This document shows, one piece after another, positions 17,062-45,365 of a DNA stretch of 64,000 nt. Position 1 is the first letter of the stretch; every line of letters starts with the position of its first letter. Under the pieces are notes generated by a model. That model had not been told where the DNA came from and searched no databases. It saw only the letters and a list, made by a program, of their open reading frames with translations. Source of the DNA: Psammoneis japonica (taxonomy: Eukaryota); the NCBI GenBank assembly GCA_008632985.1, contig QPGO01000048.1:62001-126000 (forward strand), given 5' to 3'. The position numbers and the translations under genes were made by a program.

Positions 17062-17080
17062 AAGAGAGAGAGAGAGAGAG
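17062..17080 (+). repeat. (GA)n microsatellite
   Basis: agagagagagagagagag run. Confidence 0.8.
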
Positions 17081-20140: not shown

Positions 20141-23100
20141 GACAGGCAGAGTTCCTGTCCAGTACATCAGACAAGAGTTCTGATGTGCACAGGTGAAAGA
20201 TCCCTGATTCATGGGTGAGAGATCCCCATGTGATGCCAAGACCTTCAAGCAGCCAAGAGATGAATGGTTCATGACACTTTGATGGGATGCAGAGGGTCTG
20301 CAATGCTTGTCAAGAACAAGCCAGGATGAGCACTGGAACAACTGTGCATGACATGAAGACACAGTGCTGGCCAAAGAATTGTTGGATGGACATTGAAACA
20401 GTCAGGTGGCTGTTGGACTTCACAAGGCCAACAAATCTTTATGTGAGGAAAGGAGAGAAGAACAACTGCAGCAAGAATGGGTGACTGGAGAACAGAGCTC
20501 ATCAAGCAATTCACTGAGAGTGCACTGGCAAAACCTCAGATGAGGGCCATGAGTCCTCTTCAGCAGAGACCACCAATCATTGGAAATTGAAAGGCAACAG
20601 ACATGAGAGATGCCCTGGACTGTGTCCAGCTTGTGACTTGAAGAAACAGAAGATGAGAATGCAATCACTCATTTGACATCATGGGTGGAATCAAACAATG
20701 CACTTTGACCAAAATGGGCTGAACTGTGCAAGAGAAGATTTGAGCTCATTGAGGACCCACATGTGTGTTGCATTGTAAGTTGGTCCCCAGAGATTGATGA
20801 GTGTGTGTCTGCTGCCCAACTGATGATTTCCATGCATGACAATTTTGAAACCTTGAAGAAAACATCAGGGACAAAGCTGGGTTCATGCACCTGACTGAGG
20901 AATGTTGGCAGATTGTTGGAAGTGATGTCCACAGTAACAAGTCAAATTTTGCACCAATTGGAGATTGACACGGCATTTTAGCAAGACATTTGACAAAACA
21001 ACAGTGGCAGGCTCGGGGGTGACAACTTGCAGTTGGCCCTGAGTGGACAAGATGCCAACCATCTGAGAGAACGGTTGAGTGTGAGTTGTCCCCCGTGCAG
21101 CATGGACATGGATGGGAGCTGTGGTCTCCCAAAAAGTGTCATGACAAAGCCAATGGGACATGAGACTGCTTCAGAGTGGTCAGGGATCCAACCAGAGTGA
21201 TTTTTGATGCCAGAAAATTGGCGCCATTTTTCCACCACAATGTTGAGGTTGCAAAGCTGGGTTTGACATGGACATGTCACAGAATGGAATTTTCAGAAAT
21301 GTGTCCAGAGAGAGTCAACAGATGGATTGAGCAACTGCTTGTTGGTTTGTTGGACAATGATGTGAAAGAGATTGTTCATCAAGCCTGCATCAGGCATTTT
21401 GTGGATGCCATGGAAGGACACACCCACAGGTTTCAAGATGATTGATTTCTCAGACAGCACATGTTGTGCCAATCTGTGGTGCAACAGCCAAGACATTGAA
21501 AATGCTGATGGTGCAAGTGGTGTCCCAGACAAGGAAATTGTCCAGCACCTCATCCCAAATCCTCAGAACACCAGTGAGAGCAGCAGGGGTGTGTTGGAGC
21601 ACACCTGACTTTGAGGGGCATCACGTGTGACCCAGAAATGAAGAATTTTCATCTTTTGAGCTCTGAAGTGGCAAGTTGATGCTGCTCTTTGGAGGTTTTT
21701 CTCTTTTCATTGATCACAATCTTACCAACTTTTTGTGCTCACTCTTTAAGCAAATCATCTGGTTTTGCCATCTGGATCATCATCTGGATTGTCAAGAACA
21801 ACAAGTGGCACCTGTCACTGTCCAAACAATCTGTTCAACACATGTGCGATGTTCAATGCAAGACAAACCACAGCTGAAACAGTCACCAGGGCAAGTGCAA
21901 TGATTGGCACAGGAAGCCTTGGGATTCCCTTTGGGCAACATTGACTGCCAATTCAACAACCCAAAAGTGCATCTGACCCAACTGGATGCCACCACCTTGA
22001 AGTTTGCTGACATCATCCAATGCTGCCATGCAACCTCAAAGCCAGACTCTTGAAGCTCTTTGCCAAATGCAGAGGCAGAGCCAACTTTCCAACTCAACAA
22101 TTTGCTGCACTTTCACCTTCCAAAAAAAAACCACTTTGTGTTGCTGTCCATGCCCAATGAGAGCTTGGGCCCTGTCATCATCAAAAAGACACAATGCACA
22201 TCAAAGTGGTGCTCTGCAACCATCTGGATGATGCATTTCAGGCACCAATCTCTGAGCAAGTTTGGTGCCCAAGTGCACAAATGCTGGCTCAAAAACACTC
22301 CCAGCAACTGGCTCAAAAAGCACAAAGTCAGCCTCCCATTGCAGACACAAGTTTCTGAAACATCAACTCAAGACTGACAAAAATCCCTTTTCCATTTTCT
22401 GCCTCACTTTAAAGATGCACAAGCTTCCACTGCTCTGACCCCACCTGATCATCATCTGGGCAGCAGATGACAACAAGCTCCAGCAAGTCACCAAGAGCTG
22501 CCAAAGTGGCTGCACTTTAAGAGCTTGCTGAACCTCAAGAACAAACTGATCTAGATGAGGAAATCCGCCAAGCTGGCTTCTCTTCTCATCTGCCATCAAG
22601 CAGGCTTGCTGCTCCAACATGCTCACCACCAAAAATCTCGTTGAGAAATTGCTCCTGCACCCCTTGCCAACAACGTGCACACAAACTGCCAAGATCTGCA
22701 CATGGCCATCTGGAAAATGCAGTTGCTCTTTTCAGAGCCAAAGTTTGCTCCACAACAAGAAGCCTGTGTTCTTGTTGAGTGCTCCTTCATTGCAACAAAT
22801 GGCTTTTTGCAGCTGACCAAATCATCAAAGCAGAAAACCAGACTCAAGACAAAATTGGGTCTCACAATGAATGGGCTCTTTGCAAGAGGATTTTTGAACA
22901 TGTTCGCGTGCAATTGTTGTGAATTTCTGTGTGTGCATCCACAGCATTGACAAAACTGGCATTTCAGGAAACAACAATGAAGAAACAAATGTGGCTCATT
23001 TCTGTGCACACACACCCTGACACCCAAGCAAGTCAACTGGGCTGAAGCATGCTGACAACTTGATTTGTTCATTTGTCAACTGGTGTGCATTTTGAAATTT

Positions 23101-26100
23101 TGGTTTCCAAAAATGTTTGTTTTCGGCACTGGCATTGTTTGGCACTTGGGGCATGCTCTTGTTCCATGCTGTCATTCCATTGTCTTTGCTCCCTCTGTTC
23201 TTTGAGCTGCCCCTCCCACAGTCTCTTGCAGTCTGTCTCACAGCACATGTTTCTGTTGTTGGCTGTGCTGCCATCAGAGCAATCCCTGGTGGAAGACAGC
23301 AGAGATGTTTTGAGCTTGGCATGTTTTGTGTGGCAAGCATGGCACAATGCTGCTGTTTCTGCTCACCTGTGTGCAATGTTGTGGCAATTTGTTTCTCATC
23401 CTTGGCTGTTTTTGTCAACTTGTTGGATTTTCAAAAAAGAAGAAATTTCAAAAGCACTGGTTTGTTGTTTGCTGCAAGCTCCTTGCTCTTGTGCCACACT
23501 TGTGACCTCTCACCTTTCTCATGGCATTTTTCATTGGCATGTGCAGAGCCCTGGATTTTGTTGGTGCCTTGCAGCAATGTTGTCATTGCTTGTGTGCTGC
23601 TTGGGTGCATCATCCTGTGTTTTTGTGTTGTTTTGTCTGGCGGTGATGTGGCTTTTTTGCCATGGAGCCAAGCCACCAGTTGGCCTGGTGATCATGGCAT
23701 GCATCATTCTGCAAACAGTCATTCTTCTTTGCAACCCTTTTGGCACATTTGTTTTTGAAGTTTGAGGCTGTTCAAATCAGCTTAAATCAATCATTTTGTT
23801 GGTCTTCACCAACAAAGCATTTTTGTTTGTTTGCCAGCTGGGTGTTGAACATTGTTTCACAATCAGATGCAGTGCATTTGTTTTCAAAGAAGATTGATGT
23901 CTCAGTCATTGTGACCTCTGAATCAACTCTTGTTCAGAGCAAAATCTTCACAGCTGTGCTGGTCTGAGCAGTTTGTTTGTTTGCATCTGTGGGACTCACA
24001 ACAACTTTTTTGGCTGTTGCAGCCAGCCATTCTCATCGTGTTTGAATCTTGCAGGCAACAAGAGGTCAAAAGAGGTGGCAGAGTTGGTCATGCAGGGCCA
24101 CAGCCCTGAACACAATGTGCCTGAAAAGAGCCAAAGCAGCAGCCCCTGGAGACGTGGGGGGCCACTGCAGCTGCAGCACCTCCTGCCAATGTTCTTCCAC
24201 CCCAACAAGTGGTTTCCCATGCCAGTGCAGCCATGTGCTGTTGTGACCCCATGTCACCTTGTCCCCAGAGGGTCAGTGCAGACTTGAGCTCCCCAACTTG
24301 AGAGCAAAGCAGCCCCATGATGGGCCCAACCAACCCAACAAGCAACAGCAGACTGAGAGCACTGGTGGTCTCTGATGGACCCCAGGCAACCAACATTTCA
24401 AAAACTGTGGCAGCCCTGGTTGAGTGTTGCAAGGTTGACACTGTGGTGTTGTGACCCCATGTTGCCTTGTCCCCAACAGCAGCAGACTTTGAATTTCCAA
24501 GCACCTGAGTGAAAGGATCCCATGATGGTGACAGTGCCAGCCAACCTGAAAACAGCAAGCTGAGGGCATTGGTGGTTTCTTTGTTTCTGTTTGTTGGAGG
24601 CAACAAAGAGCTGCTGTGATGAGTGGGCAAGCCATCCTCCATTTCATTCTGACCTGACATGCAGCAAGAACAGATCTTGCAGGCAGATTGGCTGGGATGT
24701 GGCTGGGATGCAAGCCACGCAAATTTTTGAGGCTTGTGGCCTTTGCAAAGCTTTCCTGCTGTGAGTTGTGGAGAGCAAGTCTTTGCAGTCAATCTTTTGT
24801 CAATGATGCAGTGGCTGCAATGTGGCATCAAACATCCATGCCAACCTTTGCACAAAAAATGAACCAATGTCAAATGAAATTCCACCACCAAAGCCTTGAT
24901 TGCAACTGCCACTCAATCAGCCCAACCCCCCATCAGCTGAGTGAATGGAGAATGCTCACCCTTGTTCTCTCCAACAAGCAAATTAGTGCCAGCACTTTGA
25001 CAAGCATGGCATCCAAACAACCTTTGCAATCTTCTGCAAGAGAGACAAAAATGGTGCATTTACAGAGCAACAACCAAGAGCTGTGCAGAAAGTGGACACG
25101 ATTTGGTGTTCACTGGCAGAAATCCAATGCCAAAGCCAAAACAGTGCACACCGCACATGCATGGACCCAAACAAAAACACAAAATAACTCACAACCATGT
25201 CAGCCTCAATGACTTGGCACCCACCAAAAATGTTTGCAGCACATTTGTTGTCAATGGATGGCTTGAAAGTGGTGCTCAATGAAGTGCAAATTGACCCTCA
25301 CTGCATCTGGGTTGATGTCAGGATTTGTCAAATTGTGATGTGATGATGATGAGGATGGGTCAGTTGGCTGAGCATTTGTGGCAGCAGGAAGCATGAATGA
25401 CAACAGGGGGATCAAATGATGACATGGCCATTGTGAGGGGCTGCTCAACATTGTGAATTGGGGTCTGGAGTGCAAGCTCACATTGGCAGAAGGACAGGAT
25501 CCAAACTTGCAACTGTTTTGTCTGTTAAAAGAGGATTGGTCCAACCATGTTGTGAGCAGTTGTTGTGAATGTTGGAGAGTGGCCGCAAGCAGGGAAGACA
25601 TGACTCCCTTCAAAAGTTTCTCAAGCTCAATTGATGGTGGGTCATTTGGGTTGCATGGCACATGTGGAGGAAGATGGGGTCACACAGGGGCTCTGACAAC
25701 TCCAAAAATGGAGCTGGTGCTTTGTGGGAAAGTGGCTTCAGTTTGTCAAGAAGTGACACTCCAGGGACATGCTGAGCTGAGTGTTGCTGGGCACACAAGC
25801 ACCAACTCATTTCATTTTTGTGCAGTCTTTGCATGGGTGCACGGGCCTTCTTGGAGTGAAATGGTGAGGTTCACTGAGTTGACTTTTTGTGAGATCTGGG
25901 CTTGTGACCCAGGTGGTGGCCCTGTCAGCGTCACTCAGCCTGAAGGCAAATGCTGCCCAGCAGTCATCATTGGTGATTTGCCAGATGCACAGTGGCATGC
26001 CAAAGGGGTTGATGGTGTGCCCCCACACTGTCCCATTGGACTGGCACCAACAAGCAGCATCACCAAATGTGCAAACAGTTGTTTTTTTCACAATGACTCA

Positions 26101-28264
26101 CAGTGCTTCAATGAGAGCTTCCATCTGCAACATGTTTTTGTGCTTGATGAGAAGATCAATTGATGAGCAGAAATGAAATTTTTACATGTGTGGTTGCACT
26201 CTTGACACGTGCAACACATTTTCAAAACTCAACCAAGGTGGCCACTGTCACTTAAATTCCAAACAATGTTTTGACACTGGCTGTGTTTTGGTCACAAATC
26301 TGGCATTGCAAAAGGCATCATTTTGGTCTGCAGTTGGGTTTTCCAGTGGTTGGGGATTTGCAATGTTTTGTTTTGTGGCCCAGCATTTTGTTTAGAGTTG
26401 ATTCATTTGTTTGGAAGAGCTTCAGCTCAAATGTCCATCGCATGATTTTGTTTTGTTTCTGCTGCATTTTTGTTTCTTTGTTGCATCCTTTGGCACCACA
26501 CAGCTCAGCCACCAACCCACTGTTCACTCAACAATGGTGTGCCCCTCTGTTGCAGTCTCTCCTGTGTCTCTGTTGCATGTCTGACAACAATGAGAAGAGT
26601 CTCCTTTTTCAAAATGCACATCAGATGGGCTGGGTGACCATGCATCACAGCCACTCCTGCAACCTCAGGAACCTCCTTTGGGACCCTTTGCATTTTGTGG
26701 GCTCCTGCTCATGGTGTGGCAGCCAGAATCTAAGTCTCTTTTGCTGCTGCCAGAGGGAGGAAGATGTGTTTGTCATTTGTTGTTGGCACAATGCTGGGCC
26801 GTCAATCTTGCTTCTTTGAGCATGAAGTTGAGCTTTCAAGGCCCACTTTCTGGGGCAAAATTTGAATTTTTTTACACCATGGGCACCCAAAGAGCCAGCA
26901 AGGCCAGCCAACCCCTGCCACTTTTCCTTCACACTTGTGAGAAAGGCTGTGATGCAGTGCAAGCGACAACAAGTTGGAGCAGAGAGGAGCCAATGTGTGC
27001 AGCCAGATGTGCTGCAAACACGAACATGGACAAAAAGAAAGAGCAAAGAGGGTGAGAGGGCTCATGAGAGACTCTTGGCCCAGCCAGGCCCCAGTGCAGC
27101 AATGTGGCTTGTCTCTTTTCTCTTTGTTCCTTCTCATCAACAGGGGCCAAAAGCGCTGAGCCACACCGCAGAGAGGCGCAAGCGCATGCTCTCCACCACC
27201 CTCTCATGCAACAAACAGCAGAGGCAGTGTCAAGAGAGTCATGTCTCATGCACACCACACATGACACAAGCAATGCAACATGCAATGCATCATCATCAAC
27301 AAGTGTCTGTCTCTGTGCACCTTCACAGCACCAAGCACCCCCAAGTGGCGGCCGGAGAGCCTCACAACCCTGGGCTGTGCCGCTGGGGCAAACTGCCCCA
27401 TAAAAATGCAGTGCGAGTTTCTGCCAGCCGTGTGGCATTTCTTTGTTATTTGTGTTGGCAGTCATGAATGTAAAAGTTTCTTCGTTTGCGAGTGCCGTAC
27501 GAGCATGATGTGGGCCCTAAATGTTAGACTGCCGCACCGCATGTGATCGAAAGACATTTTCTCGAAACAGCTGGTGGGGCATCTGCAAGAGACTTCAGGC
27601 ACGCAATGACGCACCGAGAGAGGCTGACGTTTCTTTGTTGGTTGACATCCCCATTAAATGAATCATTTAATAATTTTTCGGAATTTTGTTTAACAATGCA
27701 CTAGAGTCGTTAATTGGTTGTATTGACAGAAGATGAATGGGCAATGTGGGGACTTCTACTTCACTTCCGTGCAACGCAGAAGCCACTTATGCCGCCGTAC
27801 CGTATATACCTGAATGTACGTAAGATGGCGTTCGTTCAAATCAATCACCTTTTACAGTATTTTGATCGACATGCTCACATCCAACGAAACGAAGAACACC
27901 GAATCGGAACTACTTAGCCCTACAACCAAAGAAGTGCTGAAAAAACTTGCGAGATAGAGCACCAAGCAGTGGGCGGGGAAGTGGGATACTATTTTTGAGG
28001 GAAAAGTGAGGGTATTCTACGATAACTAAAAACAACACTACAAATTCAAAAAATAATCAAACAGAAATTCAAAATTGCAGAAGATGAATTCGGCATCTTC
28101 GGATAGGTCAGGAGCAGGTGTGCCGCCAAACTTCTCAGCATTGACGTTCCTCTGGGCGCTGCGTCAGCAACAATTCAGGATTCGTCGGTATCCTCTCGAC
28201 ACTTCTATGGAACAACAAGTTCGAACGCGTCTCTTAACTCGTCTTCTTTTCGGAGGCGGCAACG

Positions 28265-29484: not shown

Positions 29485-29793
29485 TGAAGCGCAGTCGATA
29501 CACACTAGCTACAGTATGCCGGTGCTTGCTTCGTTTCCAATGCCCTTGTGCATACCAAGGTATATGCACATCAACAGGCGTTCAATCTAAAGCTCTTTCT
29601 CTACACGCCTGCTGGGTTAGGTGCGTTCTTTCATATCAACAACTACATACTATATATTCAAAGGCGACAACTGAAGGGTAACCAGCGCTACAACAACAAT
29701 AATACATTCCACTTTCATCCCCTCTAGTAGAGGGTAGCTTAAAGAAAAACTACTAGGAACACGATTTGGGTCAACTCTGGACTAATGGTTGAT

Positions 29794-31206
29794 TCAACCA
29801 TCCCATTCTTCAATGACACGAGGGTACAGACAGTGGTCCATCAACATAAATATCGTGGCCTCATTATCCACATAAGTTTCCAAGCTCCAGTTTTTGAAAG
29901 CTTTTGGTCCCTCTTCGTCAAGACCATGGATATCGATTAGCTCCGTTTCAAAAAACTTGTTTGCGAGGACCACACAATCCAGCAGAGTTTGTGATCGAGA
30001 AATGTCATCCAATTCATCATCAAGTTGAAGCATCTGTTGACTGTAAGTAAGGGCGGCATTCTTTGTCAGTGGATGAGCGCAATTAAGTTCGTTGCAGAGA
30101 CGACGAATAGTCTTTTTGCGGCGCTGCAGAACTGGATCTTTTCGCTTCTTGTTGCTTTTCTTCGTTAAGTTGTTGGTGTGGATGTTTTCTTCGTTCTCTT
30201 GTTCATCCAACGGCAACGCAAGAGGCAACTCAATAACCGTTACTGGTGGTACTTCCATGCCATATTTTGTAAAGAGAGGAGACTGGAGTGCTTGCCTCGC
30301 AGTAAGTCGTTGTTTCGGGTCCACTTCCAACAGTCCCCGAACCAAATTCGCAAACGGTTGATCTGGTAGGGCTTCCTTTGCTTCCTCTATCAGTTTGGCC
30401 GCCTGTTTATTCCTCGACGTAGGTAAGGTTTGGTTGCGAATCATTTCTAGTAAGAGCACTCCTACGCTCCAAAGGTCCGAACTAAGATCGTAGTGTTGAG
30501 AAGAGACGACTTCTGGCGCCTGGTACGTAACCGTTCCGACCTCTCCCGTATGCGTAGTTTCTTCACTTGATCCTTCCTGACGAAAGTAGCTCGATCCCTT
30601 GCCGTACATGGCCCCATTCATAAGCTTTGCTAGACTGAAATCAATCAAGATCGGCTTCCAGGTTGGGGACGATGAATCTCCATCTCGCAACGTGTCGGGT
30701 TCAGCCAGCGTTACATTGGAAGCTTTGATGTCCCTGTGTATTAAGCCGTTGTCATGGAGGTAAGCCACGGCACTCAAGAGTCCATGCGCAATTTCTACCT
30801 TCGAAGAGCGACTTTTTAGCAATCCGTTGTCAATGGCGTCGCCCAACGTGCCTGTCTTGTAAAGAGGCATTGCCATCCCCAGACATCCTTCGGTTCCTGC
30901 ACCATAATCTTCTTCACCTTCATCTGTTTCAGGCGACTTGACATCAACCATTGGAACGATATTTTGATGCCCATTCTCTCCTCTGAGCAATCGTAGAGCA
31001 GAAATCTCCCTCAAGGCACCAAGATCATAGAGCTGAGAATCGTGCTGAGTCTCATCGTCCGCCGACGATTCTTCGTCGTCCAGGAAGAGCTTGAGAGCAT
31101 ACTCTTCTCCGTCATTGTTGTACACAGTCATCACTGATCCATATGTGCCATCTCCAACGGATTCAGCTCGATGATAAGTACTCAACGGCAACGTTCCGGA
31201 TGACAT
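29794..31206 (-). CDS. Intronless CDK-like Ser/Thr kinase with C-terminal cyclin-box-like domain
   Basis: VGDGTYGSV, ALK, ALREISALRLL, IHRDIKASN, DFSLAK, GTVTYQAPE, DLWSVG. The C-terminus has CVVLANKFFE and NEATIFMLMDHCLY. Confidence 0.88.
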   Translation of the reverse strand: MSSGTLPLSTYHRAESVGDGTYGSVMTVYNNDGEEYALKLFLDDEESSADDETQHDSQLYDLGALREISALRLLRGENGHQNIVPMVDVKSPETDEGEEDYGAGTEGCLGMAMPLYKTGTLGDAIDNGLLKSRSSKVEIAHGLLSAVAYLHDNGLIHRDIKASNVTLAEPDTLRDGDSSSPTWKPILIDFSLAKLMNGAMYGKGSSYFRQEGSSEETTHTGEVGTVTYQAPEVVSSQHYDLSSDLWSVGVLLLEMIRNQTLPTSRNKQAAKLIEEAKEALPDQPFANLVRGLLEVDPKQRLTARQALQSPLFTKYGMEVPPVTVIELPLALPLDEQENEENIHTNNLTKKSNKKRKDPVLQRRKKTIRRLCNELNCAHPLTKNAALTYSQQMLQLDDELDDISRSQTLLDCVVLANKFFETELIDIHGLDEEGPKAFKNWSLETYVDNEATIFMLMDHCLYPRVIEEWDG

Positions 31207-32395
31207 TTCGTCTTGGTACCGGAGGGCAAATGCAGCAGAAGTGGTGCCGATGCCGATCCAAGAGATAGATTGTGTAGCCTCTAGAGTAGCGAGCGAGCAT
31301 TTGTACTGAAGCAGTCAGTCAATCAGTGCGGCTTGAGCGTTTTAGAGATCGCTGGACAGACCGTACTAGAAGTACGTAGTTTCTCTTGCCTTCGCGCCCT
31401 ACTGTACGTGCGCGTACGTACGATTGATGTCGCACTGGCGATCAGACCTTCTTCGACGGATCTGTTGCGCTTTCGTGAAGACCTCTCCCACTTCAGATTG
31501 GGCGCGCCGCATGCAGCGCACAGACTGCTCTGGCTCTACTCCAGAGAGCAGAGTCTGTCCACAGTGCCTGTGTGGAGTGGTTTTGAAGCAGTTGCGGTGC
31601 CTGAACCGCTGCAATGGTGATGACGCCATGGTGGAATGACCAACGCCGCGTGCCGTTGCGTTGTGCACTCTGATTGCACTGCACTCCGACCCTTCTTTTG
31701 ATTTGTTTGGCAGAAGCAATGAGGAAAGAAAGGAGAGAGACAAGAAGCTTTGGGATCTTCTGCAGCATCATGTGGTGCTTGGTGAAGGAGCCGACCCAAG
31801 CACGAGGATCTCTCACTTCAATTGCAGGCTCTTGCCAGACAAAGAACTTGTGATTTGCTGCTGGAGTGTGTTGGAACATCTGCGTCATCTGTCGATGCAT
31901 TCGTGGACCCAATGGAGTCTCTCTGGTCATCCTTGTTGGAGGGCATTGTCGATGGAAACAGCTCTTGTGGCACTCACATCTGCAACAAACATGTGTCTTG
32001 GATTCAATGAATTGTCTTTTGAGGCCATGATGAGGCTTTGGAAGTCCTTGTGAGACAGCATTGAAGCCCCAAAACAGGACAAGCTTGAGGATCCTCCTTC
32101 TTCATCCAGCAATGATGGGGTCCAAGAGTTGAGAAAGGACACCGCTTTCTTGTGGCCGCCGTCATCCCAGGAAACAGAAAATTCATTGAAGCACTTGTGT
32201 CCAGAGATGGATGTGGGGAGTCAGGCATCTCATGAGGACACAGAGATGAAGGTTCAAGGCACTCTGAAGTGCGATCCAGAACTTCCTGCTGCGCACTTCT
32301 TGTGGTTCATCAATTGCCTCCACAATGATGAGAGGGTTGGAGCAATCAATGCACTCCACCAGTGCTTTGATTGCACCATGATTCAAGACCGGAAG

Positions 32396-32671
32396 TGACA
32401 GAAATTGAAGGCAAATGGCAAGAATTCAAACAACAACTCCTTGCTGCTGTCTGAACAGCAGATGAGTCTCCGCTCAGAGACCGTTGCAGGAGCCAAAAGA
32501 CGTGCAAGTCGGCACAATCGGGCCACTGTTGTCATTCTTGTGAGCCTTGTGGCTCGAAAGCAAACTGCATCGCGCGCGAACACGCGGAACTAAAGCACAC
32601 AAAACTGTGCGCGGCAAACCAAACAGCGCATGACATTTCGCGCGCACCCAAATCCTGTTCAAATCCTGTCA
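32396..32671 (-). repeat. 3' LTR (276 bp)
   Basis: + strand begins tgacagaaat and ends aaatcctgtca (TGACAG inverted termini). Bases 32396-32514 match 35911-36029. Confidence 0.85.
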
Positions 32672-32680
32672 CTCCCCAGT
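32672..32680 (-). promoter_or_regulatory. Polypurine tract end
   Basis: Minus strand reads ctggggag|tgaca, the typical copia GGGGAG-TG junction. Confidence 0.7.
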
Positions 32681-33224
32681 TTGCTTGAGGAGCCACAGAA
32701 ACAGATTCGACTTTGGATTGACCAAAGAACTTTGGAGTCAAGGCACCAAAAACATGAGGAGACAAGAAAGGATCAAAGTGGGTCATCTTGAGATGAGCTG
32801 CGTCTCCCCAATTGCAGATGTCGTTGTGCTTTTCAAAGCTCAAGGCACACTTGGGATCTTGTGGGATTCCACATCCGCACTTGCAATGGAAGGAGCAAAG
32901 CTTGGTCTGGTTGACAATGTTGAACGGCGGGGCAACATTGCAGGCGGCATGGTGTTTGCACGACTCGGGGAACAGAGCAAGCATGAGTTCAAAGGCACAA
33001 GCGGTGGCCTTGTGTTCCACCAATCCGATTGCAAGCTCAGCTGCATCTCCTGAGAGACTGATCCAATTGGAGAAACGAGTCTCAAGGTGCAAGCCTTCGG
33101 GGATCGGATTGGAGCAAGACATCTTGTGGTGCAAGGCTGCAGACATCTGATTGGGGCAACCAGTCCCATGCTGCAAGGCTTCTGGGATCCAAAAGGACTT
33201 GCCAGTCTTGTGACACGAGTCTTC

Positions 33225-33920
33225 GGGGATCCAATCAGGAGGCCAAGTCTTGAGGTGCGAGACTTGGGGGATCCAATCAGGAGGCCGAGTCTCGTGGCGC
33301 AAGACTTGAGGGATCCAATCCGGAGGCCGAGTCTTGAGGTATGAGACGTGGAGGATCCAATTGGGAGGCCCGGTCTCGAGGCACGAGACGTGGAGAGTCC
33401 AGTTGGGAGGCCTGGTCTCAAGGCACGAGACTTGGGGCATCCGATCAGGAGGCCCAGTTTCGACGTACGAGACTTGAGGCATCCAATCAGGAGGCCCAGT
33501 CTCGAGGTACGACACTTGGGGCATCCAATCAGGAGGCCCAGTCTCGAGGTGCGAGACTTGAGGCATCCAATCAGGGGGCCTGGTCTCGAGGTACGAGACT
33601 TGAGGCATCCAATCAGGAGGCCTGGTCTCGAGGTGCGAGACTTGGGACATCCAATCAGGAGACCTGGTCTCGAGGTACGAGACTTGGGGCATCCAATCAG
33701 GAGGCCCAGTCTCGAGGTACGAGACTTGAGGCATCCAACCAGGAGGCCTGGTCTCGAGGTACGAGACTTGAGGCATCCAATCAGGAGGCCCAGTCTCGAG
33801 GCACGAGACTTGAGGCATCCAATCAGGAGGCCTGGTCTCGAGGTACGAGACTTGAGGCATCCAATCAGGAGGCCTGGTCTCGAGGTGCGAGACTTGGAGC
33901 ATCCGGTCAGGAGGCCTGGT
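33225..33920 (-). repeat. 42-bp coding tandem array, ~16 units (ETRPPDWMPQVSYL)
   Basis: Unit catccaatcaggaggcc(tg/ca)gtctcgaggtacgagacttgagg on the + strand, head to tail with no spacers. Confidence 0.95.
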
Positions 33921-34233
33921 CTCATGGTGCGATGCTTGGAGGATCCGAAGACAACAAAGCTGCTTGGATGTCCTGAACTCCCCATCTGATGAACCGGTTG
34001 AACTGTTGTGAACAGATTCAATGACGGGAAAAGGAGGCCTCGAGACTTGAGGCATCCAATCAGGAGGCCTGGTCTCAAGGTGCGAGACTTGGAGCATCCG
34101 GTCAGGAGGCCTGGTCTCATGGTGCGATGCTTGGAGGATCCGAAGACAACAAAGCTGCTTGGATGTCCTGAACTCCCCATCTGATGAACCAGTTGAACTG
34201 TTGTGAACAGTTTCAATGACGGGAAAAGGAGGC
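33846..34233. repeat. 195-bp tandem duplication (65 aa) within the LTR element
   Basis: 33846-34037 is nearly identical to 34041-34232. Confidence 0.9.
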
Positions 34234-35895
34234 TCCCCATCAGGAGATGCGAGAAGCAAGTTGTCATCTCCATCACTTCCCAGACGAAGACTGTGAAGGG
34301 TGACAGTGGTCAACATGTGGAGGTTGGCAGCATGTGGTTTGCGGGGTGCAAAGACTGCAGCTTTGGAAGCCATGGGTGGAGTGTCCCAACTGGTCTCGAA
34401 GTGCGGGCCTGTGCAAGGGCTGCAATCCTGCACTGGGCCGAGGTTGCTTGCAGGCGGGTTGGTCAAGACATGTGGGGTGCGACTGACACCACTTCTAGGG
34501 GACACCTGAGTGGCGGCACAGTGCAAGGCTGGTGTCAAAATGGCACTGGGTTCACCTGGTTTGGATGGCAAGGGACTCGGCACAGGTGCGGAGGGTGCTG
34601 CGCCAGTGGCCAGAGAGGTCAAGTGGTCCGGACCAAGGCGGCAGTTGCGAAATTCGTCGGGTGTGAGCAACTGGGGTTCATTGGTCACATCATCACCATT
34701 GCAAACTTTGACAAAGTAGAAGCTGATCAAAGCTGCCAGGAGGTTTCTGTGGGTCCATGGCAAAGGCACTGCATTGGCGCCATCTCTGCAAGTGAGGGCG
34801 TCAATTTGGGTGGGTGAGAACGTGAACAACTCCTCGCACGATTCAATCCCATTGATGGACAGGGCAGAATGAAGAGGGCTGTCATCGTCTTGATTGAGCA
34901 CAGTGCCTAGAATGCATTTGAAGCTTTCGGTTTGTTGCTGTCACGTGAGAACCATGACGGAGGACGGTGCAGTAGAAACAAAAGACAGGAACCAATCTAG
35001 AGCGCGATCTTGACTTGGAGTTTTGACTTGGAACTTGGCTTGAAAAAGACTTGACTTGAGCTAGACTTGACTTGAAATCTTGGACCATCTTAAAATCAGA
35101 AGTCGCCGGGTTGTGCTGTCCCGTTCGTTGTCAAGTGCTAAACTTCCCATCCGGTCCGTAGAGTTGTGCCGGCACGTCCGAACCCGCAGCTGGTGGTGCT
35201 TTGGGTTGCTTGCGAGCGGAGCAGCGGGTTGTTAACCCCTGCAGGCAAGCTGACTAGAGGTGGACAAGACCCCCGAACCGTTCTCATTTTATGTCGGTTG
35301 GATTTCCCGATCAGGCTGGCCAGTTGACGCAGGCGTTGGGCGCTGTCGACGAACGAACAAATGCGGGAAAAAACACCCTCACCCCAACGTAGGCTGCAAT
35401 CACGGCTGCTTGCTCTCACAGTCGTCCTCGTGGACCTAGTGGAACTGTAGAGCACCAGCAGTCCGGGGTAGATCAGGTACAATGGACTCGGTGTGCTTGT
35501 AGAGTGGCAGCAAAGCCGCAGTCCAAAGAGTGGGTACAAGTTCTTGGCCGTGAAGATATGTATATATATATGTCTTCAGCGACGAAGATTCTTGAATGTG
35601 TAGGGTTCTTGACCGTTAACCGTTGAATGGGTATACTAAGGGATGAGGATCAAGGATAGACTTGGATATGACCGTTGAATGTATGTCTTCAGCGATGAAA
35701 GGTAGTGTGATCAATCCAGATATCCAGCGGTAAGGAGACTTGACGGTGACGTTAAATTCCTGCCGATGCCTGGTATTGAACGCGCGTAGACTTGCCGATG
35801 TACGTAGAATATATACGGAGGTCCACGCAGAATTGAAAAGGCGTCGTCGGTAAATCAACGACGACGATGGCGGTTGCTCAATGGGTTGACAATGA

Positions 35896-35910
35896 GCAAG
35901 ACTGTTAATC
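35896..35910 (-). promoter_or_regulatory. Putative primer-binding site complementary to the tRNA-Asn(GUU) anticodon arm (half-tRNA priming)
   Basis: + strand gcaaga-ct-GTT-aa-tc directly abuts the 5' LTR. Confidence 0.6.
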
Positions 35911-36029
35911 TGACAGAAATTGAAGGCAAATGGCAAGAATTCAAACAATAACTCCTCACTGCTGTCTAAACAGCAGATGAGTCTCCGCTCAGAGACCGTC
36001 ACAGGAGCCGAAAGATGTGTGAGTCGGCA
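35911..36029 (-). repeat. Truncated 5' LTR (119 bp retained)
   Basis: 109/119 identical to 32396-32514; similarity stops abruptly at 36029. Confidence 0.85.
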
Positions 36030-37454
36030 GTCTCATTGTTCGCTCTTCACTCATCTTTTGGCAACAGGGATCTTTCTTGCAATGCCACAGAGGAGGCTGT
36101 CTGTGTTGCTCAGGCAAGCAGTGACAAAGCATGTGTGGCATGTGCTCTTGGGTGGTTGTGTCACAACAAAGCAAAGCAAGGCACGGGGAGTCAGAGGAGC
36201 TCTTGGAGTGATGTTTGAGTCATGCGGCCAACACAGCAAACTGCGTTCCCTTGCTGGAGGTGTCAACATGGAGCTTGCAAGACACTGTCTCATGCCACCC
36301 TCTCATGATCATCAAGAGCTTTAACAACCCCATGGATTTGAGAGCACAGTTGCTGCAAGGCAATGCTTGGACAGGGCTGGGCTCATCCAAGGCAGGCAGA
36401 AAGCCATTGTGCAACCGTGTGCCACATCTTGCCTTGTCAAAGAGCTCTCCATCAGTGTCTGCAGACCAAACAGGATGCAGTGGATGATCCTGGATAGTGG
36501 GCTCCTTTGGGAGCATTGAAGATGGAAAGGTGATGACAGAATCGTCCCAATCCAGTTTGTCACAAGTGTCACAGCAATTGCTGAAATTGTCAGCATCGTC
36601 CAGTTTGGCCATCTCAACAGAAATCTTGCACCACTCTCTCTGAACTGCAGGACTTGGAACGAATGGAAACATGCATGACAGCAGCAGCAGTGCCAGATGT
36701 GTTCTCAATGGGACAACAATGGAACCCGGCACAGACTGGCATTCCTCTGGTGTGGGGCAGTCATCACAATCCCAAGTGCAAGTCTCACGATGATCAAGAC
36801 TTCAGCATTGATCCCACCCAGCAAAGCCGCGGCAATGCCAATGTCACAAGGGTGACCTCTGTCATGTTAGAGACAATGCTTCAGGAGTGGACTGTTGTCA
36901 GAGTTGTTGAATGCACAAACCCCTTGGCGAAAAAGAAATCAACCAGTCATCTTCTTGCCTCACTCAGTCATTCCCAGTCAACCGATTTGGAAGAAGAGGG
37001 GACACACAACCTTTCTCCAATTCCCATGCTTGTCCATTGCATGAAAACAAGAATGAAATTGAGGTTTGTGTCCCATGTGACAGGTCCATTTCCATCACCA
37101 TTCATCATCCTGATGACACGATTGTGAGGAAAATTCAAGAAACTCACATGGTGGGTGCAGATTTCACTTTTCATTCTAAACCTTTCAGGCATTGACAAAT
37201 GATGCACAAACATTGGCATTGGCCAGACAGAGCTGGTGATTCCAACAGAGCATGTGCAAGCATGTGGTGCTGTGCACTGCAGTCAACAGAGGAAAAGAAT
37301 TAGCCACGCTGAGGAAGTGGTGATGACCATGAGCCCAACAATGGCAAAAGAGGACCAAGACAGTCAACAGAGACAAAGAGAAACAGCAGATGGACTGGAG
37401 AAAGCCACACTGGTTTTGCCCACAGGGACTTGTTGGTGTCATGGACCACAATGT

Positions 37455-37772
37455 GAGGATGCACTTCTTGTAAAAAAAGCACCATTTGAGACGGTGTGGC
37501 AGAACAGCCAGAGCATGAGTTGATCCTTGGCCACCGAAGTGGTCCCCGCAACAAGCGAACCCAATCGGGATTTAGAGACAGGTGGACCAGCTGAGAGATC
37601 CATGCCAGTTTTGCCCATTGGGACTCAGTGGCAACTCAGACCGTAAATCTGAGGATGCAACCCTTGTAAAACAGGCACCATTTGAGATGGTGTGGCAGAA
37701 TGGCCAGAGCACGACTCGATCCTCGGCTGCCAAAGCGGTCCCCGCAAAAGAGCGGACCCAACCAGGATTTGG
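37455..37772. repeat. Diverged ~196-bp tandem duplication
   Basis: gaggatgca..cttgtaaaa..gcaccatttgaga.ggtgtggcagaa occurs at 37455 and 37651. Confidence 0.8.
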
Positions 37773-38903
37773 AGCATGTCCATGCAAGATGGCACCACAT
37801 GGTGTGAACTCAGTCAACATGACAGAGAAGGGTGGGAGGTGCATCCACAAGACAGTGCCAAATGGCATGGTGAAATGGCGCCAATGCACGAGACACTCCC
37901 GACTGCGCAAAAGCAGACCACGCAAGGGATTTTCTGTCAGCTGACAGGAAGGAAGAAAGCCCATTTCAATTTTCATTGTTGGCATCTGCTTGGAGACACC
38001 TTGACAGTTCCATGGTGTCTCCCAACCTGCCAGACAATGAGGGATCCCTTGGGCTGGCCTCATTTCTGGTTTTGCTTGCTCGTCTCATCCATCGTCCATC
38101 CATCATCCGCCCATCATCCTTCCTTCACCCGCTCATTCCTGCTTTCATGCAGTGCTCTTGGTCCAGCCAAGGAGGTCCTCTCATTCTTGGGCTTAGAGTC
38201 TTAGCCACGATTGCGAGATTTTTTGTCTTGCCATCATCTCCGCTCTTTTTGAGCTCAGCGCGTTTTGTGTCTGGTCGTCGCATGGCACATTCTTTGCGCT
38301 CAGGCTTGCAAGATTTTTCATCTTGCCATTGTCCATTCTTTTTTTAATCAGCGGATTTTTAGTCTGGCCATCATGCAACAATTGATTGTCTGGTTGTCAT
38401 CCACAATCCGTGCACTTGCAAGTTGCAAGGTGTCCGTTTCGTTCGTTCTTCTCTCTCTCTCTCTCTAAAAAACAACATGTCAAAACTCAAGCACAGTGGT
38501 TGCTCGTCACTCTGAATGACATCAACAAGCCATCCATTGACACAAACACACAAACAGCAATGTGGGTGAAGAACAAGCATGCAGGAATTTGGCGTGTCGA
38601 TTCAAAACCCGTCCTGTTGTCCTTCCTGCAGATTGTTCAGACGGGAGGAGAGTGTGACTTCGCTCAGGTCACCATAAACAAAATTTTTGTGCCTTCCTCG
38701 CTGAAATTAGTCCTGGTAAAGTTTCCGGCCTTGGTGAATACAAAGTGGACACAGATGACCGGAAGAACCACTGTGCCATTAATGACATTCTCATCTATCT
38801 CAGTCCGTCTTCAGTCAGTCTGTCCGTCATCAATCCTTGTCGTCGTCCCTCCGTCGTCCGGTAGTCCGGAAGGTGGATGCAATACAGTAATGGACGATGG
38901 ACG

Positions 38904-40774
38904 ATGACGACTGACGACGACACAGCAAACAAGTTGAATTGGCCAACACTTTGCATGCAACTGTTGACCGCATGTACGGTGAACAAACTGAGACGCTGCG
39001 TGGTCGTATTGGGACAGCTTTGTACTCGTCTCTATGTCGAACCTGTGGCGGTGGGGCTCACACGGGAGTACATCGTGTCACCGGATTTGACGCGCATGAC
39101 AGCAGCGACAGCGAAGGCAGCCAATGGACAAAAACTCTGAAAGACCTGGCGTTTTCAAGCATATCCTTTCCAAACAAATCTATCACTTCCATTGACGGGA
39201 AGCCGCATGATATCGAGGTGCGCTCTGCTTTGTCCCTGTTCCACCGTTATAAAAGTCGTCATGCGGACGGAGGTGCAATTCTTCACGTCGTGTCAGATAT
39301 GGGCTTAGTTCGATCGATACAGACGCCGCTTGAACTGGCAAGAATCATATGCGTTGCATTAGAGGATGACTTCCGACGCGATGGATTAAGCTACGATGTC
39401 AGGGCCAACGCGTCTGGAATAATTTGTGTCGTGACTGCCGACCGTGCGAAGTTTCTTCGTAGCAACGATAGATTGCCTTGCCCTCGCTGTGTCAAGTGGT
39501 TAAAAGGTGAAAAAGGACTGTGGTGGCATCAGCAGCGAGAGCACGGATCCGAACACTATATGGCAAGGGCTAACTCGCAGCAAAGCTCCCTAGAAATTGT
39601 GGTGTACAACAAAGGTTTCCAGATGCAAAAGCTGCAGGCTTTTAAACGGAACGAGTCTAGACGACCATCTCAGTTGTCTCTTTGTTGGAACGAGCAAGTC
39701 ATTGAATTCGTTAAGCAAGGAAATTTGGATGGATTGACACGTGCAGTTATGGTGGGTTTCAAATAGACGCAGCGTGATTGAATGTTGAAATACTATGCGA
39801 GACTAACTCATCTTTGTCGCTCGGCACCGGGACTTGCACAGGATGGATTTGACCCAAAGCAGGAATTAGACAAGCACGGTGCATCGGTGGTTTCCTGGGC
39901 TGCTGGATCAGGACAATTAGACATTCTCAAGTATTTGATAGAGAAGTGTGGATGCTCTGCTGATGTGGCTCAACGCGGAAAGCGATCGTTTTCAGGACGG
40001 ACGCCACTTCATTGGGCGGCTCGTAACGGGCATCTCGGTGTTGTCGCGTATCTTGTAGAGGTACGAGACGTAGACTTGGATGCAACAACAGCTGATGGAA
40101 CAACGGCATTTTGTTGGGCATGTTGGCAATGTCACCGTGATGTTATGGAGTGAGTAGAAAGAATCGCACTCTGCCGTCAAAACGAATTCTTGTTCAACAA
40201 ACAAAAGGATTTGAGCACTTACCGATGATCGTTGCTGGTTCTATATAGATACCTTTATCGAGCCGGTTGCAATGTCAACATATCGAATTCATTTGGTTGC
40301 AATGCAGTTTTATGGTGTGCTCAAGGAGGCGCCAACGTTGAAGCACTGAAATGGCTTGCTTCGGTTAACTGCGTATTGACGACTGTAAACACGAACGGTC
40401 ACGGCGCCATCCATAAGGGCGCCCAAAGAGGTCACGCGGAAACCTGTAGATGGCTTATATCTTGTTTAGAAGACGACGTGAATACCACGGAAGAAAAATC
40501 GAACATCATCCAGCTCATTGGCCCAGATTCTGACGGATGTTGTCCTTCGGACTTGGCAGGAACAGAAGGCTACTATGAATTGGCCTCTTGGTTAGCACAG
40601 AAAGAAGTTTGTCTGGTCAAAAGATGGTGCTGCAACTCAGCATTGCCGAAGTTTCTGGTGAGCGCAAGTGGGACGGGAGCATCACACTATGACATTGCTC
40701 AAACTGAACCCTACCGATGGGAACCAGGAGGCGGGGTTATGCGCATGATTTCATCCATTCACAAGCAAAAGTGA
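38904..40774 (+). CDS. Ankyrin-repeat protein with a C2H2-like zinc finger; 3 exons, probable 1-nt frameshift at ~38928
   Basis: CPRCVKWLKGEKGLWWHQQREH; ankyrin repeats GASVVSWAA, GRTPLHWAARNGH, GTTAFCWAC, GCNAVLWCA, GHGAIHKGAQRGH. Introns 39752-39841 and 40150-40248. Confidence 0.85.
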
Positions 40775-43030: not shown

Positions 43031-44728
43031 TCACCACAGACCGACTTTCTTTTTCAGAGCCGTCTGCCTCCATTTCTTTAGTTTCCTGAATTCTTCCTTT
43101 ACCATTCCAAACTCGGATTTGAAATCTTCAGGTGACAAGTACATTTCTCGTTTCGTGTAGTCTACCCCATCGATACCGCCTTTCTGAAGCTCTTCCTTTG
43201 AGTAGTAGCTTGCGCTGTCTTCGTTTACCTCCTTTTCTTCCGTTTGGCCACCGTCTATCTTCGCTTCTTGCACCGCCAATCGCTCCTGCTCTTCTTTCGC
43301 CGCAACGTCCGCCGCTTCTTGAGCCTTCCGCTCGGCAGCCAAACGCTCCTCCTCTTCTTTCGCGGCCTTCTCAGCCACTTGCTGCGCCTTTTTTGCTTCC
43401 GCGACAGCCATGCGCTCCTCCTCTTCTTTCGCGGCTATTTCAGCCGCTTCTTGTGCCGTCTTTGCTTCCTCAGCAGCCACACGTTCCTCCTCCTCTTTTG
43501 AGGCCATTTCAGCCGCTTCCTGCGCCTTTTGTTCAGCAGCCAAACGCTCCTGCTCTTCTTTCGCCGCCACTTCAGCTGCTTCTTGTGCTTTTTTTGCTTC
43601 CTCGGCGGCCAAACGCTTCTGCTCTTCTTTCGCGGCCACTTCAGCTGCTTCTCGTGCTTTTTTTGCTTCCTCGGCGGCCAAACGTTCCTGCTCTTCTTTC
43701 GCGGCCACTTCAGCTGCTTCTTGTGCCTTTTTAGCTTCCTCTGCTGCCACGCGCTCCTCCTCCTCTTTCGCGGCCATTTCAGCCGCTTCTTGTGACTTTT
43801 TTGCTTCCTCGGCGGCCACGCGATCCTCCTCCTCTTTTGCGGCCATTTCTTGTGCCTTTTTTGCTTCCTCTGCGGCCACGCGTTCCTCCTCCTCTTTCGC
43901 GGCCATTTCAGCCGCTTTTTGCTCTTCAGCCAAACGCTCCTGCTCTTCTCTCGCGGCTATTTCAGCCGCTTCTTCTGCTTTCTTTGCGTCCTCGGCGGCC
44001 ACGCGCTCCTCTTCCGCTTTTGTGGCCATTTCAGCCTCGTCCTTCGCTTCCTCGGCAGCCACGCGCTCCTGCTCTTCTTTCGCGGCCTCTTCCTGTGTCT
44101 TTCTTGCTTGTTCCTCTTTCGCAGCCATTTGTGCAGCTTCTTCTGCTTTCATTGCTTCCTCGGTGGCCAAAGGCTCGTCCTCCTCTTTTACGGCCTTTTG
44201 TTCAGCTACTTCTTGTGCCACTTTCATCTCCTCGTCAGAGGCTGAAACCGGAGTGGGTTCAAGTACTTCCTCCTTCAATTCCACCTGCTCTTCAGCTGGC
44301 GATTCTTTGGACTCCTCGGCGGATGACAAATCATTGCCTGGATTCATATCCTCTGCTGCAGAGTCAGCGGCAAGACTTGACTCTGCCAACTCTTCTCCCT
44401 CGGTTGGCGCTTTGTGGTCACCACTAGTCTCAGTCGCGTTTTCTGAAGATTCCGCTGCAACTGCTGCATCGTCCATTTTCTCCTGGAAACTGTTTGCATC
44501 TTCTGTCGTTTCTTTTGCTGCTTCCTCCTCGGGAGCTCCACCATCTGTACCAGGCTCCGTCATTTCTGCTTGGGCTGCTCCTGCGTCCTCGGTAGTGGTC
44601 TCACTAGGCGCTTCCCCGGCTACCGAGACTCCAGTCTCTTCGACTGCGTTTTCTTCCAACGCATCACCGTTTGGTTTAGTCTGTTTCTGTGGAGCCTTTT
44701 TCTTGTTCCGGTTCTTCTTTTTTGCCAT
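43031..44728 (-). CDS. Acidic / E-A-K repeat helical protein with C-terminal villin headpiece domain
   Basis: C-terminus KREMYLSPEDFKSEFGMVKEEFRKLKKWRQTALKKKVGLW matches the villin headpiece. About 14 repeats of AAKEE(E/Q)ER(V/L)AAEEAKKAQEAAE. Confidence 0.88.
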   Translation of the reverse strand: MAKKKNRNKKKAPQKQTKPNGDALEENAVEETGVSVAGEAPSETTTEDAGAAQAEMTEPGTDGGAPEEEAAKETTEDANSFQEKMDDAAVAAESSENATETSGDHKAPTEGEELAESSLAADSAAEDMNPGNDLSSAEESKESPAEEQVELKEEVLEPTPVSASDEEMKVAQEVAEQKAVKEEDEPLATEEAMKAEEAAQMAAKEEQARKTQEEAAKEEQERVAAEEAKDEAEMATKAEEERVAAEDAKKAEEAAEIAAREEQERLAEEQKAAEMAAKEEEERVAAEEAKKAQEMAAKEEEDRVAAEEAKKSQEAAEMAAKEEEERVAAEEAKKAQEAAEVAAKEEQERLAAEEAKKAREAAEVAAKEEQKRLAAEEAKKAQEAAEVAAKEEQERLAAEQKAQEAAEMASKEEEERVAAEEAKTAQEAAEIAAKEEEERMAVAEAKKAQQVAEKAAKEEEERLAAERKAQEAADVAAKEEQERLAVQEAKIDGGQTEEKEVNEDSASYYSKEELQKGGIDGVDYTKREMYLSPEDFKSEFGMVKEEFRKLKKWRQTALKKKVGLW

Positions 44729-45365
44729 TATAGCAGTGCCTTGCGTATTAACACTCTCGGTTGAGGAGCTTCAAGCCAGCTCTTACCGTTGAAGAACAGA
44801 GAGTGGTAGTGTGGCGGAAATGAAAAATTGTGACGATGAAATTGCGAAGTCGTCATCGAACCGCAAAAAATCGGTCGATGACCGTTGAACGTATATAAAC
44901 ATATCCGTATGTATATCGTATAATGTTAAGCTTGCGACCGTTAAAAAACACCGTCCGTCCTGCGCCTCAAGTACCGTATGTATGTATGTATGGTGCAATT
45001 GTACATACTGTAGGGCCCTATCCTTTTTGCGCCAAATCCACCTCGCGACTCGCAACAACCACCGACCACCGTTCCTTTTCGTTTCATTTATTCGAGTCGT
45101 CGTCCTCCACTCTCTCTCTATCTACTCTACCGGTAGCAATAGAGGAGGTACAACAAGTCGACTGGCACTCAAGCTTGTCGTGTTTGAATCGTCGACTCAA
45201 CTGCTTCTTCACTCAGGATCATCAGTAACTTCCTAAATCTACGCGTTTACCATTCGCATCATCATCCGTTTGCTCATCGCTCATCGGTATTTCTGGCTGC
45301 AGCAGTGGCAAGTTAGAGTTACGCAGCGATAGGCGACAAATAACCTACTTTCTTTACTGGTCGTC

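Follow-up and report, generated by a model that had tools for sequence, protein, structure and literature searches.

TpA erasure precedes CpG decay at a diatom copia element, and both losses follow a shared map

A stretch of 64,000 nucleotides of the diatom Psammoneis japonica (contig QPGO01000048.1 of the 91.4-Mb assembly GCA_008632985.1, positions 62,001 to 126,000, or G000:C44:62001-126000; hereafter the window, to which coordinates without a prefix refer) contains at 32396-36029, on the minus strand, a non-autonomous copia element with long terminal repeats (LTRs), lying inside a dead duplicate of the host gene APC5. For the SRP54 gene of the window, those of the best hits that carry a name come from diatoms. 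In this element, its sister copies, and the adjoining host DNA, the dinucleotide TpA (TA) is erased earlier than CpG (CG) decays, and the two losses, while decoupled in chemistry and evolution, are coupled in space. Normal DNA in the window has observed/expected ratios (o/e) of 0.55–0.59 for TA and 0.98–1.04 for CG (~0.57 and ~1.0, respectively, in the genes). Two blocks, 16.4–27.4 kb and 31.4–38.7 kb, have lost both dinucleotides and gained only TG and CA, with TA and CG being the sole strongly depleted dinucleotides among the 16. Sharply delimited TA-depleted blocks cover 34% of 174 kb and also reach into adjacent host duplicates.

The relative rates were obtained from LTR pairs, the two LTRs of a copy being identical at insertion. 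Altogether 41 pairs were used, namely 32 from the 40 short copies (eight were excluded for missing, truncated, or nested LTRs, or for want of a matching target site) and nine from the 13 full-length copies (excluding L018, with a target-site mismatch, L030, in which no 3' LTR was found, and L022 and L027, which run off their contigs). In the 32 short pairs, the 17 TA sites of the LTR are kept at a frequency of 0.281 (72% lost) and the 22 CG sites at 0.874, and other sites differ at 59/6251 positions (0.94%, i.e., a 0.47% change per base). The hazard of TA is thus ~9 times that of CG; per base, TA is lost at ~135 times and CG at ~14 times the background set by the other sites of the same LTRs. 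Where both members of a site pair have lost TA (n=326), 135 are discordant, one LTR reading TG and its partner CA, against 135.7 expected from independent events after insertion; this places the TA losses after insertion, at the level of DNA, on both strands, and independently in each copy. The seven youngest full-length pairs differ at 4–9 TA, 0–2 CG, and 0–2 other sites (L017: 9, 0, and 0; L026: 9, 0, and 1), and the gag of six young full-length copies keeps 7–9 of 40 TA as opposed to 97–99 of 104 CG. The original prediction, made from the letters of the window, had proposed two mechanisms with the TpA-directed one faster and earlier; this is borne out by the LTR pairs and, from the evolutionary side, by related copia gags from metagenomes, 22 of 23 of which have normal TA (o/e 0.49–0.75) while 16 of 23 have a CG o/e under 0.4.

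The same prediction had called the two losses decoupled, which holds for their chemistry and fails for their distribution. Across the 41 LTR pairs TA loss and CG events are correlated (rho 0.68). CG losses are concentrated in the 3' LTRs (106 vs 53 in the 5' LTRs; P=3e-5), and TA is likewise better kept in the 5' LTRs (269 sites vs 208; P=0.036), a difference that falls short of significance when only the 32 short copies are counted (162 vs 138; P=0.23). In young copies a sharply bounded patch comprising the 5' LTR and ~400 bp of the adjacent leader is spared, and among the 40 short copies the six whose leader is spared have kept 142/150 CG sites, as against 720/843 in the others (P=0.0015). 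Since the flanks beyond the 5' LTRs of L017, L020, L021, and L117 are themselves TA-poor, the spared patch needs no normal neighboring DNA. The CG-spared 5' end is moreover general for these elements, as in 10 of 11 foreign relatives the body keeps less CG than the part upstream of gag.

The components of the window element are as follows:
32396–32671, minus strand: 3' LTR, 276 bp, TGACAG...CTGTCA; of the family sites it keeps 1/17 TA and 19/22 CG.
32532–34940, minus strand: internally deleted gag-derived frame of 801 aa, with no Pfam match; no pol.
33215–33923, no strand: 42-bp tandem array of 17 units; after it comes a 195-bp duplication, extending to 34233.
34941–35500, minus strand: gag-proximal part of the leader, partly converted; it keeps 12/27 TA and 34/40 CG.
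35501–35910, minus strand: spared leader beside the 5' LTR; it keeps 26/30 TA and 24/25 CG, and the patch is also spared in young copies elsewhere.
35911–36029, minus strand: 5' LTR remnant, 119 of 276 bp; it keeps 2/7 TA.

The leader totals 970 bp, and the LTR and leader are shared, at 93% identity, with an autonomous 7.4-kb copia element bearing an RVT_2 domain (E=2e-16). This, together with the 801-aa frame matching only the two ends of gag (residues 1–131 match the N-terminal part of the complete copia gag, and residues 179–243 its C-terminal part), identifies the window element as a non-autonomous derivative. Members of the family have 276-bp LTRs bounded by TG...CA and exact 5-bp target-site duplications (29/32 short and 9/10 full-length copies); the window copy lacks the duplication because a deletion took the rest of its 5' LTR and ~43 bp of APC5. 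In L127 and L150 the only mismatch between the duplicated target sites is CA versus TG, which implies that the host bases directly next to the element underwent independent conversion once it had inserted. Within the spared leader, at 35550–35575, there is a TATATATAT run that is intact in the window copy and in young copies; it may belong to an internal promoter or to a site bound by protein.

The near-absence of TA that had been claimed for the body of the element (32500–34900) outside the array was confirmed: 11 TA remain, eight of them in the array, and the other three amount to an o/e of 0.02–0.04. The accompanying description of its CG as abundant does not hold: CG lies far above that of the old erased core (0.08), but at an o/e of 0.57 (0.40 in 32672–33214) it is significantly reduced, and the run cgcgcgaacacgcgg quoted as an example from the body belongs, at 32573, to the left LTR, where the CG o/e is 1.01. 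The body is also a weaker instance of decoupling than had been supposed, since the master copy was already TA-poor in this dispensable frame: the family columns hold one TA vs 17 CG in 32672–33190 (519 bp) and 11 TA vs 34 CG in 34240–34940 (701 bp), as compared with 58 TA vs 65 CG in the leader. Sister copies of the gag-derived frame differ mostly at CG. From these alignments, the body inherited its TA loss in a finished state and is still losing CG, and the leader and LTRs are the parts that display the process itself. In the array, a GTAC site has TA in 8/17 units of the window copy and TG or CA in the others; across copies it keeps TA in 175/533 units, above the expectation for a sensitive context, and recent turnover of the array may be resetting this site to TA.

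The surroundings of the element comprise the following features:
16419–27400, no strand: old erased domain; TA o/e 0.04, CG o/e 0.08, TG and CA 1.84.
29794–31314, minus strand: host protein kinase gene, normal in TA and CG; outer limit of the affected zone.
31421–31610, no strand: left edge zone, intergenic between the kinase gene and the APC5 duplicate; 31430–31610 has 1 TA and 12 CG.
31611–32394, plus strand: 5' part of the dead APC5 duplicate; relative to the paralogue G000:C83:98346-99124 it keeps 0/28 TA and 15/44 CG.
36027–36307, plus strand: continuation of the APC5 duplicate; it keeps 0/9 TA and 2/15 CG.
36308–38210, no strand: erased fragments of other multi-copy elements; 36308–38049 has a TA o/e of 0.08 and a CG o/e of 0.27.
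38211–38873, no strand: right edge zone, also duplicated on C83, with both copies converted.
38942–39979, plus strand: unmutated host gene region; open reading frame 38915–39766 with no Pfam match, ankyrin repeats at 40229–40774.

Two host gene pairs provide reciprocal controls, each having one untouched copy. Against its unmutated paralogue on contig C83, the APC5 duplicate as a whole keeps 0/37 TA and 17/59 CG. The paralogue has no insertion, is normal in TA and CG, and gives a Pfam ANAPC5 match (4e-23); both loci have full read depth and are thus paralogues rather than alleles. A second allele of the erased duplicate shows four differences; three of them are two CG sites and one transversion, and none of these three restores a TA. 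Conversely, the unmutated region at 38942–39979 has an erased duplicate at G000:C83:109945-110966, within a 12-kb block, that keeps 4/37 TA and 13/58 CG. Over these paralogue pairs the changes are strand-symmetric (37 TG vs 32 CA). The pairs belong to a segmental duplication (31185–39979 and G000:C83:98138-110966) with reciprocal gene loss: the window retains the kinase gene and the gene at 38915–40774 and has lost APC5, and C83 retains APC5, with the kinase there being a converted remnant and the copy of the other gene erased. The duplicates diverge by ~5–7% outside TA and CG sites. Erasure may either have killed the duplicate host genes or have come after their death.

With respect to reach, the original prediction had TpA loss extending a few hundred base pairs beyond the CG-decayed core, and cited four edges as CG-bearing but TA-scarce: 16415–16620 (0 TA, 7 CG; CG o/e 0.51), 27150–27450 (2 TA, 9 CG; 0.41), 31430–31700 (1 TA, 19 CG; 0.85), and 38050–38670 (5 TA, 23 CG; 0.67). 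TA is indeed scarce at all four beyond chance (P<0.01 at each; none of ~4,100–4,270 overlapping normal windows of the same size is equally TA-poor), although these intervals were picked by eye, so that the P values flatter the claim, and CG is already reduced at three of them. For 31430–31610 the P value of the TA deficit ranges from 0.004 to 0.06 according to the expectation used. A genome search gave no close copy of the edge zones 16150–17500 and 26600–27900, where TA loss is hence read from counts only. At the left edge, ~31452–31490 is similar to DNA upstream of the intact APC5 paralogue, and an imperfect inverted repeat, acagactgctct...agagcagagtctgt, at 31520–31560 holds in its loop the sole TA of the edge zone.

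Unbiased tests are furnished by edge models, LTR-anchored flanks, and simulations. Calling the edges by separate two-state models for TA and CG (and excluding those at 34971 and 35971, inside the element, which border the spared leader) places the TA edge outermost at 30/39 edges with a median offset of 185 bp (13/16 in 200 kb of contiguous DNA and 17/23 in flanks); at the old domain it lies outside the CG edge by 86 bp on the left and 53 bp on the right. Simulated coincident edges yield a median of 12 bp and are rejected (P=2e-6). A simulated single soft zone, with a decay length of 60–100 bp and TA 9 times faster than CG, yields medians of 134–211 bp and fits the data (P=0.22–0.29). In 20 of 62 LTR-end flanks, namely those with normal DNA at 1–2 kb, successive 100-bp bins have TA at 0.09, 0.16, 0.35, 0.36, and 0.57 of normal and CG at 0.37, 0.62, 0.49, 0.63, and 0.58, with TA below CG in 16/20 (P=0.003) and a TA deficit spanning 200–300 bp next to the LTR ends. 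The suggested boundary metaplot, anchored on LTR ends, cannot separate one soft zone from two. A faster TA process saturating first in one soft-edged zone would be enough to account for its apparently wider reach, 'further' then following from 'faster', and the offset gives no evidence of a wider TA target.

The sites lost follow a context rule. Read as A-to-G on either strand, the median hazard per strand is 0.96 for T-A-pyrimidine, 0.63 for T-A-purine other than A, and 0.12 for TAAA/TAGA (70 sites; P=2e-7), with the caveat that common ancestry of the copies may bias single sites; at 40 other sites, in the gag of the full-length family, the same classes have 0.69, 0.31, and 0.02. Of the residual TA in the old domains, 31/39 are in TTAA, CTAA/TTAG, or GTAA/TTAC, and the five TA remaining in 38050–38670 are all in TTAG, TTAA, or CTAA contexts.

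We consider it probable that two chemistries, one acting on TA and the other on CG, operate on a single zone of silenced chromatin, with a TadA/ADAT2-type enzyme as the candidate for TA. The data show that, once a copia element inserts, its TpA steps change to TpG or CpA at the DNA level, on either strand and in each copy independently, in a zone set by position rather than sequence. Positional definition is shown by the contrast between the 3' LTR, which is hit, and the identical 5' LTR, which together with ~400 bp of leader is at first spared, and by the zone entering neighboring host DNA, where of two gene duplicates only the transposon-adjacent one is erased. CG decay follows the same map, which would correspond to the CG-methylated silenced chromatin of diatom transposons (PMC9998398, PMC2806351); methylation of the TA-erased zones is inferred from those other diatoms and from 27 genomic matches to the C5 methyltransferase family PF00145 (on contigs C297, C301, and C10 several such matches are clustered and partly broken). 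The zone would have a soft edge with a decay length of ~60–100 bp, such that TA saturates where CG loss has barely begun, producing both a TA halo of 100–300 bp and young elements that are TA-free and CG-rich. The weakest step is the enzyme itself, which by analogy would deaminate adenine to hypoxanthine, read as G, requiring a 5' T, favoring a 3' pyrimidine, and avoiding TAAA/TAGA. The process might serve in genome defense by removing tyrosine codons and cis-signals, and the body of the window element would be TA-poor mostly through amplification of the family from a master with a purged, dispensable gag. Nine PF00383 matches were found in the genome; of the eight loci examined, five were translated and are, from their motifs, dCMP-deaminase-like, TadA-like, and ADAT2-like, the ADAT2-like gene lying near 119.9 kb on G000:C26. 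Two A_deamin loci are also present, near 112.7 kb on G000:C40 and near 344.6 kb on G000:C79.

Several observations weigh against this proposal. The deaminases are of the ordinary kinds expected in any eukaryote, and nothing links them to DNA. In the fixed reporter of PMC12027372, UAG is the best site, unlike the low rate at TAG here. The CG edge is outermost at 9/39 edges, more than either simulation predicts (6–10%), and the better CG retention in the outer 90 bp of 31611–32394 (6/10 vs 9/34 further in) is non-significant (P=0.067). Nor is there a fixed coupling of the two losses: their TA:CG ratio ranges from ~2 to above 20 between copies, the gag having lost ~80% of TA and ~6% of CG in L017–L021 and L026, 25% and 13% in L022 (the CG figure being inflated by lineage differences), and 62% and 30% in L029; of 34 LTR TA sites, 19 survive in L028 and 14 in L029, both of them old pairs. 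Such variable ratios would suit two independently targeted systems, in which the TA mutator follows a wider and earlier mark of its own, such as a histone mark or a small-RNA guide, 100–300 bp past the CG methylation, and may also work in bursts differing between loci. The predominance of TA-outermost edges agrees with this alternative, a two-domain simulation resembles the anchored metaplot as well as the shared zone does, and eight flanks with near-normal CG (selected for high CG) are nonetheless TA-depleted across their first 300 bp (to 0.09, 0.36, and 0.70 of the normal level). Most foreign relatives show CG decay without TA loss, and in Bigelowiella natans, according to a preprint considered below, the hypermutation is active in some lines only. 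Yet no second domain is needed to obtain the edge offset, three of the four cited edges show a CG deficit already, and the same 5' LTR and leader patch escapes both losses, which are correlated across copies; we hence regard independent targeting as a serious but clearly less likely alternative.

The shared zone could also act through a lesion on thymine or through repair, by a modified T mispairing with G or an error-prone polymerase placing G opposite T at TpA. Oxidized thymines cause T-to-C changes, an A-to-G change in one strand and a T-to-C change in its complement look alike in sequence, and the context rule can equally be read as purine-T-A being favored and TY-T-A avoided. The strict dinucleotide specificity is, however, better suited to an enzyme pocket, and a genome search for the Tet/JBP family returned no candidates, although their absence is not proven thereby; this version seems improbable. 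ApT-methylated adenine was rejected as a source, as AT steps are only mildly lower in the domains than outside (0.79 vs 0.89). RNA-level A-to-I (adenosine-to-inosine) editing fixed by reverse transcription, or plain inheritance from TA-poor masters, can draw on the flagged frame being TA-poor already in the family master, on the two A_deamin loci of the genome, and on an excess of CA over TG on the plus strand (1085 vs 851), the direction expected of sense-strand editing; this excess nearly vanishes at the 26 sites in palindromic contexts (TG 321, CA 358). The two LTRs of one copy differ as TG versus CA at the rate of independent DNA events, and the APC5 and ankyrin-region duplicates, which were never retrotransposed, are converted on both strands. 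As a main cause it is ruled out by these pairs and duplicates, and we give it very little credence beyond the inherited part of the body. Least credible is an artefact of assembly or base-calling at modified bases, or chance TA-poor edges. The long-read-type assembly does have two 1-bp gaps in the intact APC5 (L101, G000:C83:98346-99124) that are not seen in short-read contigs and are probably assembly errors, and composition can produce TA-poor, CG-rich DNA, as in the villin repeat described below; the rejection of coincident edges speaks against chance. The erased state itself is no assembly artefact, as it recurs in short-read contigs, which probably come from the same sample: they match 29700–31769 with one difference, and four further pieces inside 31740–32395 with none. 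Of the sequencing runs listed, none is of RNA and none belongs to another study.

The type of mutation has a precedent in a single preprint of 2026, on the chlorarachniophyte Bigelowiella natans, which reports TpA-restricted A:T to G:C hypermutation of integrated nucleocytoplasmic large DNA virus (NCLDV) and virophage DNA, measured at ~1000 times background per generation and active in only some lines, with low-TpA genes enriched in transposon domains (Mettrop et al., bioRxiv 10.64898/2026.01.13.699255). The window and its sister copies display what characterizes that system, namely TpA-restricted A:T to G:C change to TpG or CpA, at the DNA level and on both strands, far above background and confined to patches of foreign or presumably silent DNA; an ADAT2-type deaminase is proposed there also, without proof. 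The present case differs in being from a diatom, in affecting LTR retrotransposons and adjacent host genes with near-complete conversion, and in having CpG decay on the same map, a spared element 5' end, and a 3'-context rule; its rate is relative, to other sites of the same LTRs. The words 'diatom', 'CpG', 'context', 'flanking', and 'trinucleotide' do not occur in the preprint's main text, supplements apart. Our literature search, covering few of the subscription journals, turned up no account of repeats losing TA in a diatom, only this preprint and papers on fungal RIP (repeat-induced point mutation). What is new here are the rate from 41 LTR pairs, the sparing shared by TA and CG, the host genes serving as reciprocal controls, the context rule, and the recognition of an inherited component.

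The CG half of the process resembles the ordinary decay of methylated transposons by 5-methylcytosine deamination, with CG converted to TG or CA above background in repeats and spreading to neighbors, as would be expected from the DNMT5-dependent CG methylation reported for diatoms (PMC9998398). Such decay cannot remove TA, as the foreign gag relatives with CG decay alone illustrate. TadA-derived deaminases (PMC12027372) share a strong need for 5' U/T, with a 3' U raising editing 1.5–2-fold (TadA8.20 prefers 5'-U and 3'-U) and engineered forms favoring pyrimidine-adjacent adenines on DNA; unlike the proposed activity, they are engineered enzymes or tRNA editors rather than natural chromosomal mutators, and UAG is a good site there whereas TAG is a poorer one here. 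The marks of ADAR-type editing, i.e., changes confined to the sense strand and common to both LTRs, were not found.

Ascomycete RIP likewise wrecks repeats by dinucleotide-specific transitions and leaks into flanks, but it converts CpA to TpA and mutates both copies of a duplication. The direction here is the opposite, with TA at 0.04 and CA/TG at 1.84 in the old core. RIP was rejected on the grounds of the TA depletion, the untouched copy in each host pair, and the different fates of the identical LTRs of one element.

We tentatively extend the proposal, at somewhat less than even confidence, to the idea that diatoms, and some other algae, possess a chromosomal adenine editor that reads silencing state. 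Once a transposon lands it would rewrite T-A-pyrimidine at ~100 times background, reaching the promoter end last, and would leak a few hundred bases into host DNA, finishing off transposon-adjacent duplicates; it might thus be a position-guided mirror of RIP, with non-autonomous elements born from its half-erased products. Two relatives touch on its distribution. L188 (JAAUYE010059589.1, 600–3516), a metagenome copia relative that is absent from the present assembly (best match 77% over 190 bp), has a TA o/e of 0.17 in the body and 0.67 upstream, with conserved tyrosines kept; protein P0171 has Cys or His at 6/9 conserved tyrosine columns. Together they hint that other hosts may do the same.

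So far a single report describes a DNA mutator specific for TpA, from an unrelated alga, and it gives neither an enzyme nor a link to methylation. The locus and its sister copies supply material for an enzyme hunt in the form of a relative rate, a context rule, a spared patch, a flank reach, and before-and-after host genes, and the shared map makes dependence on CG methylation, as opposed to underlying chromatin, directly testable in diatoms. In genomes of this kind LTR–LTR divergence overdates insertions, and dead genes retain open frames in which histidine or cysteine stands in place of tyrosine. For the base-editing field, a naturally occurring adenine deaminase of DNA, if true, would be of interest.

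Elsewhere in the window, a villin-headpiece gene at 43031–44770 has a 69-bp coding repeat that is TA-poor and CG-rich through its amino-acid composition, making 43262–44177 a false positive for loss of TA with CG kept. Direct and inverted repeats of 130–290 bp (76–84% alike) lie at 59866–61096, where the surrounding TA and CG are normal. Further along the contig, G000:C44:154236-159211 (92236–97211 relative to the window) is a 5-kb TA-depleted block with no CG-depleted segment, and is probably another young element.

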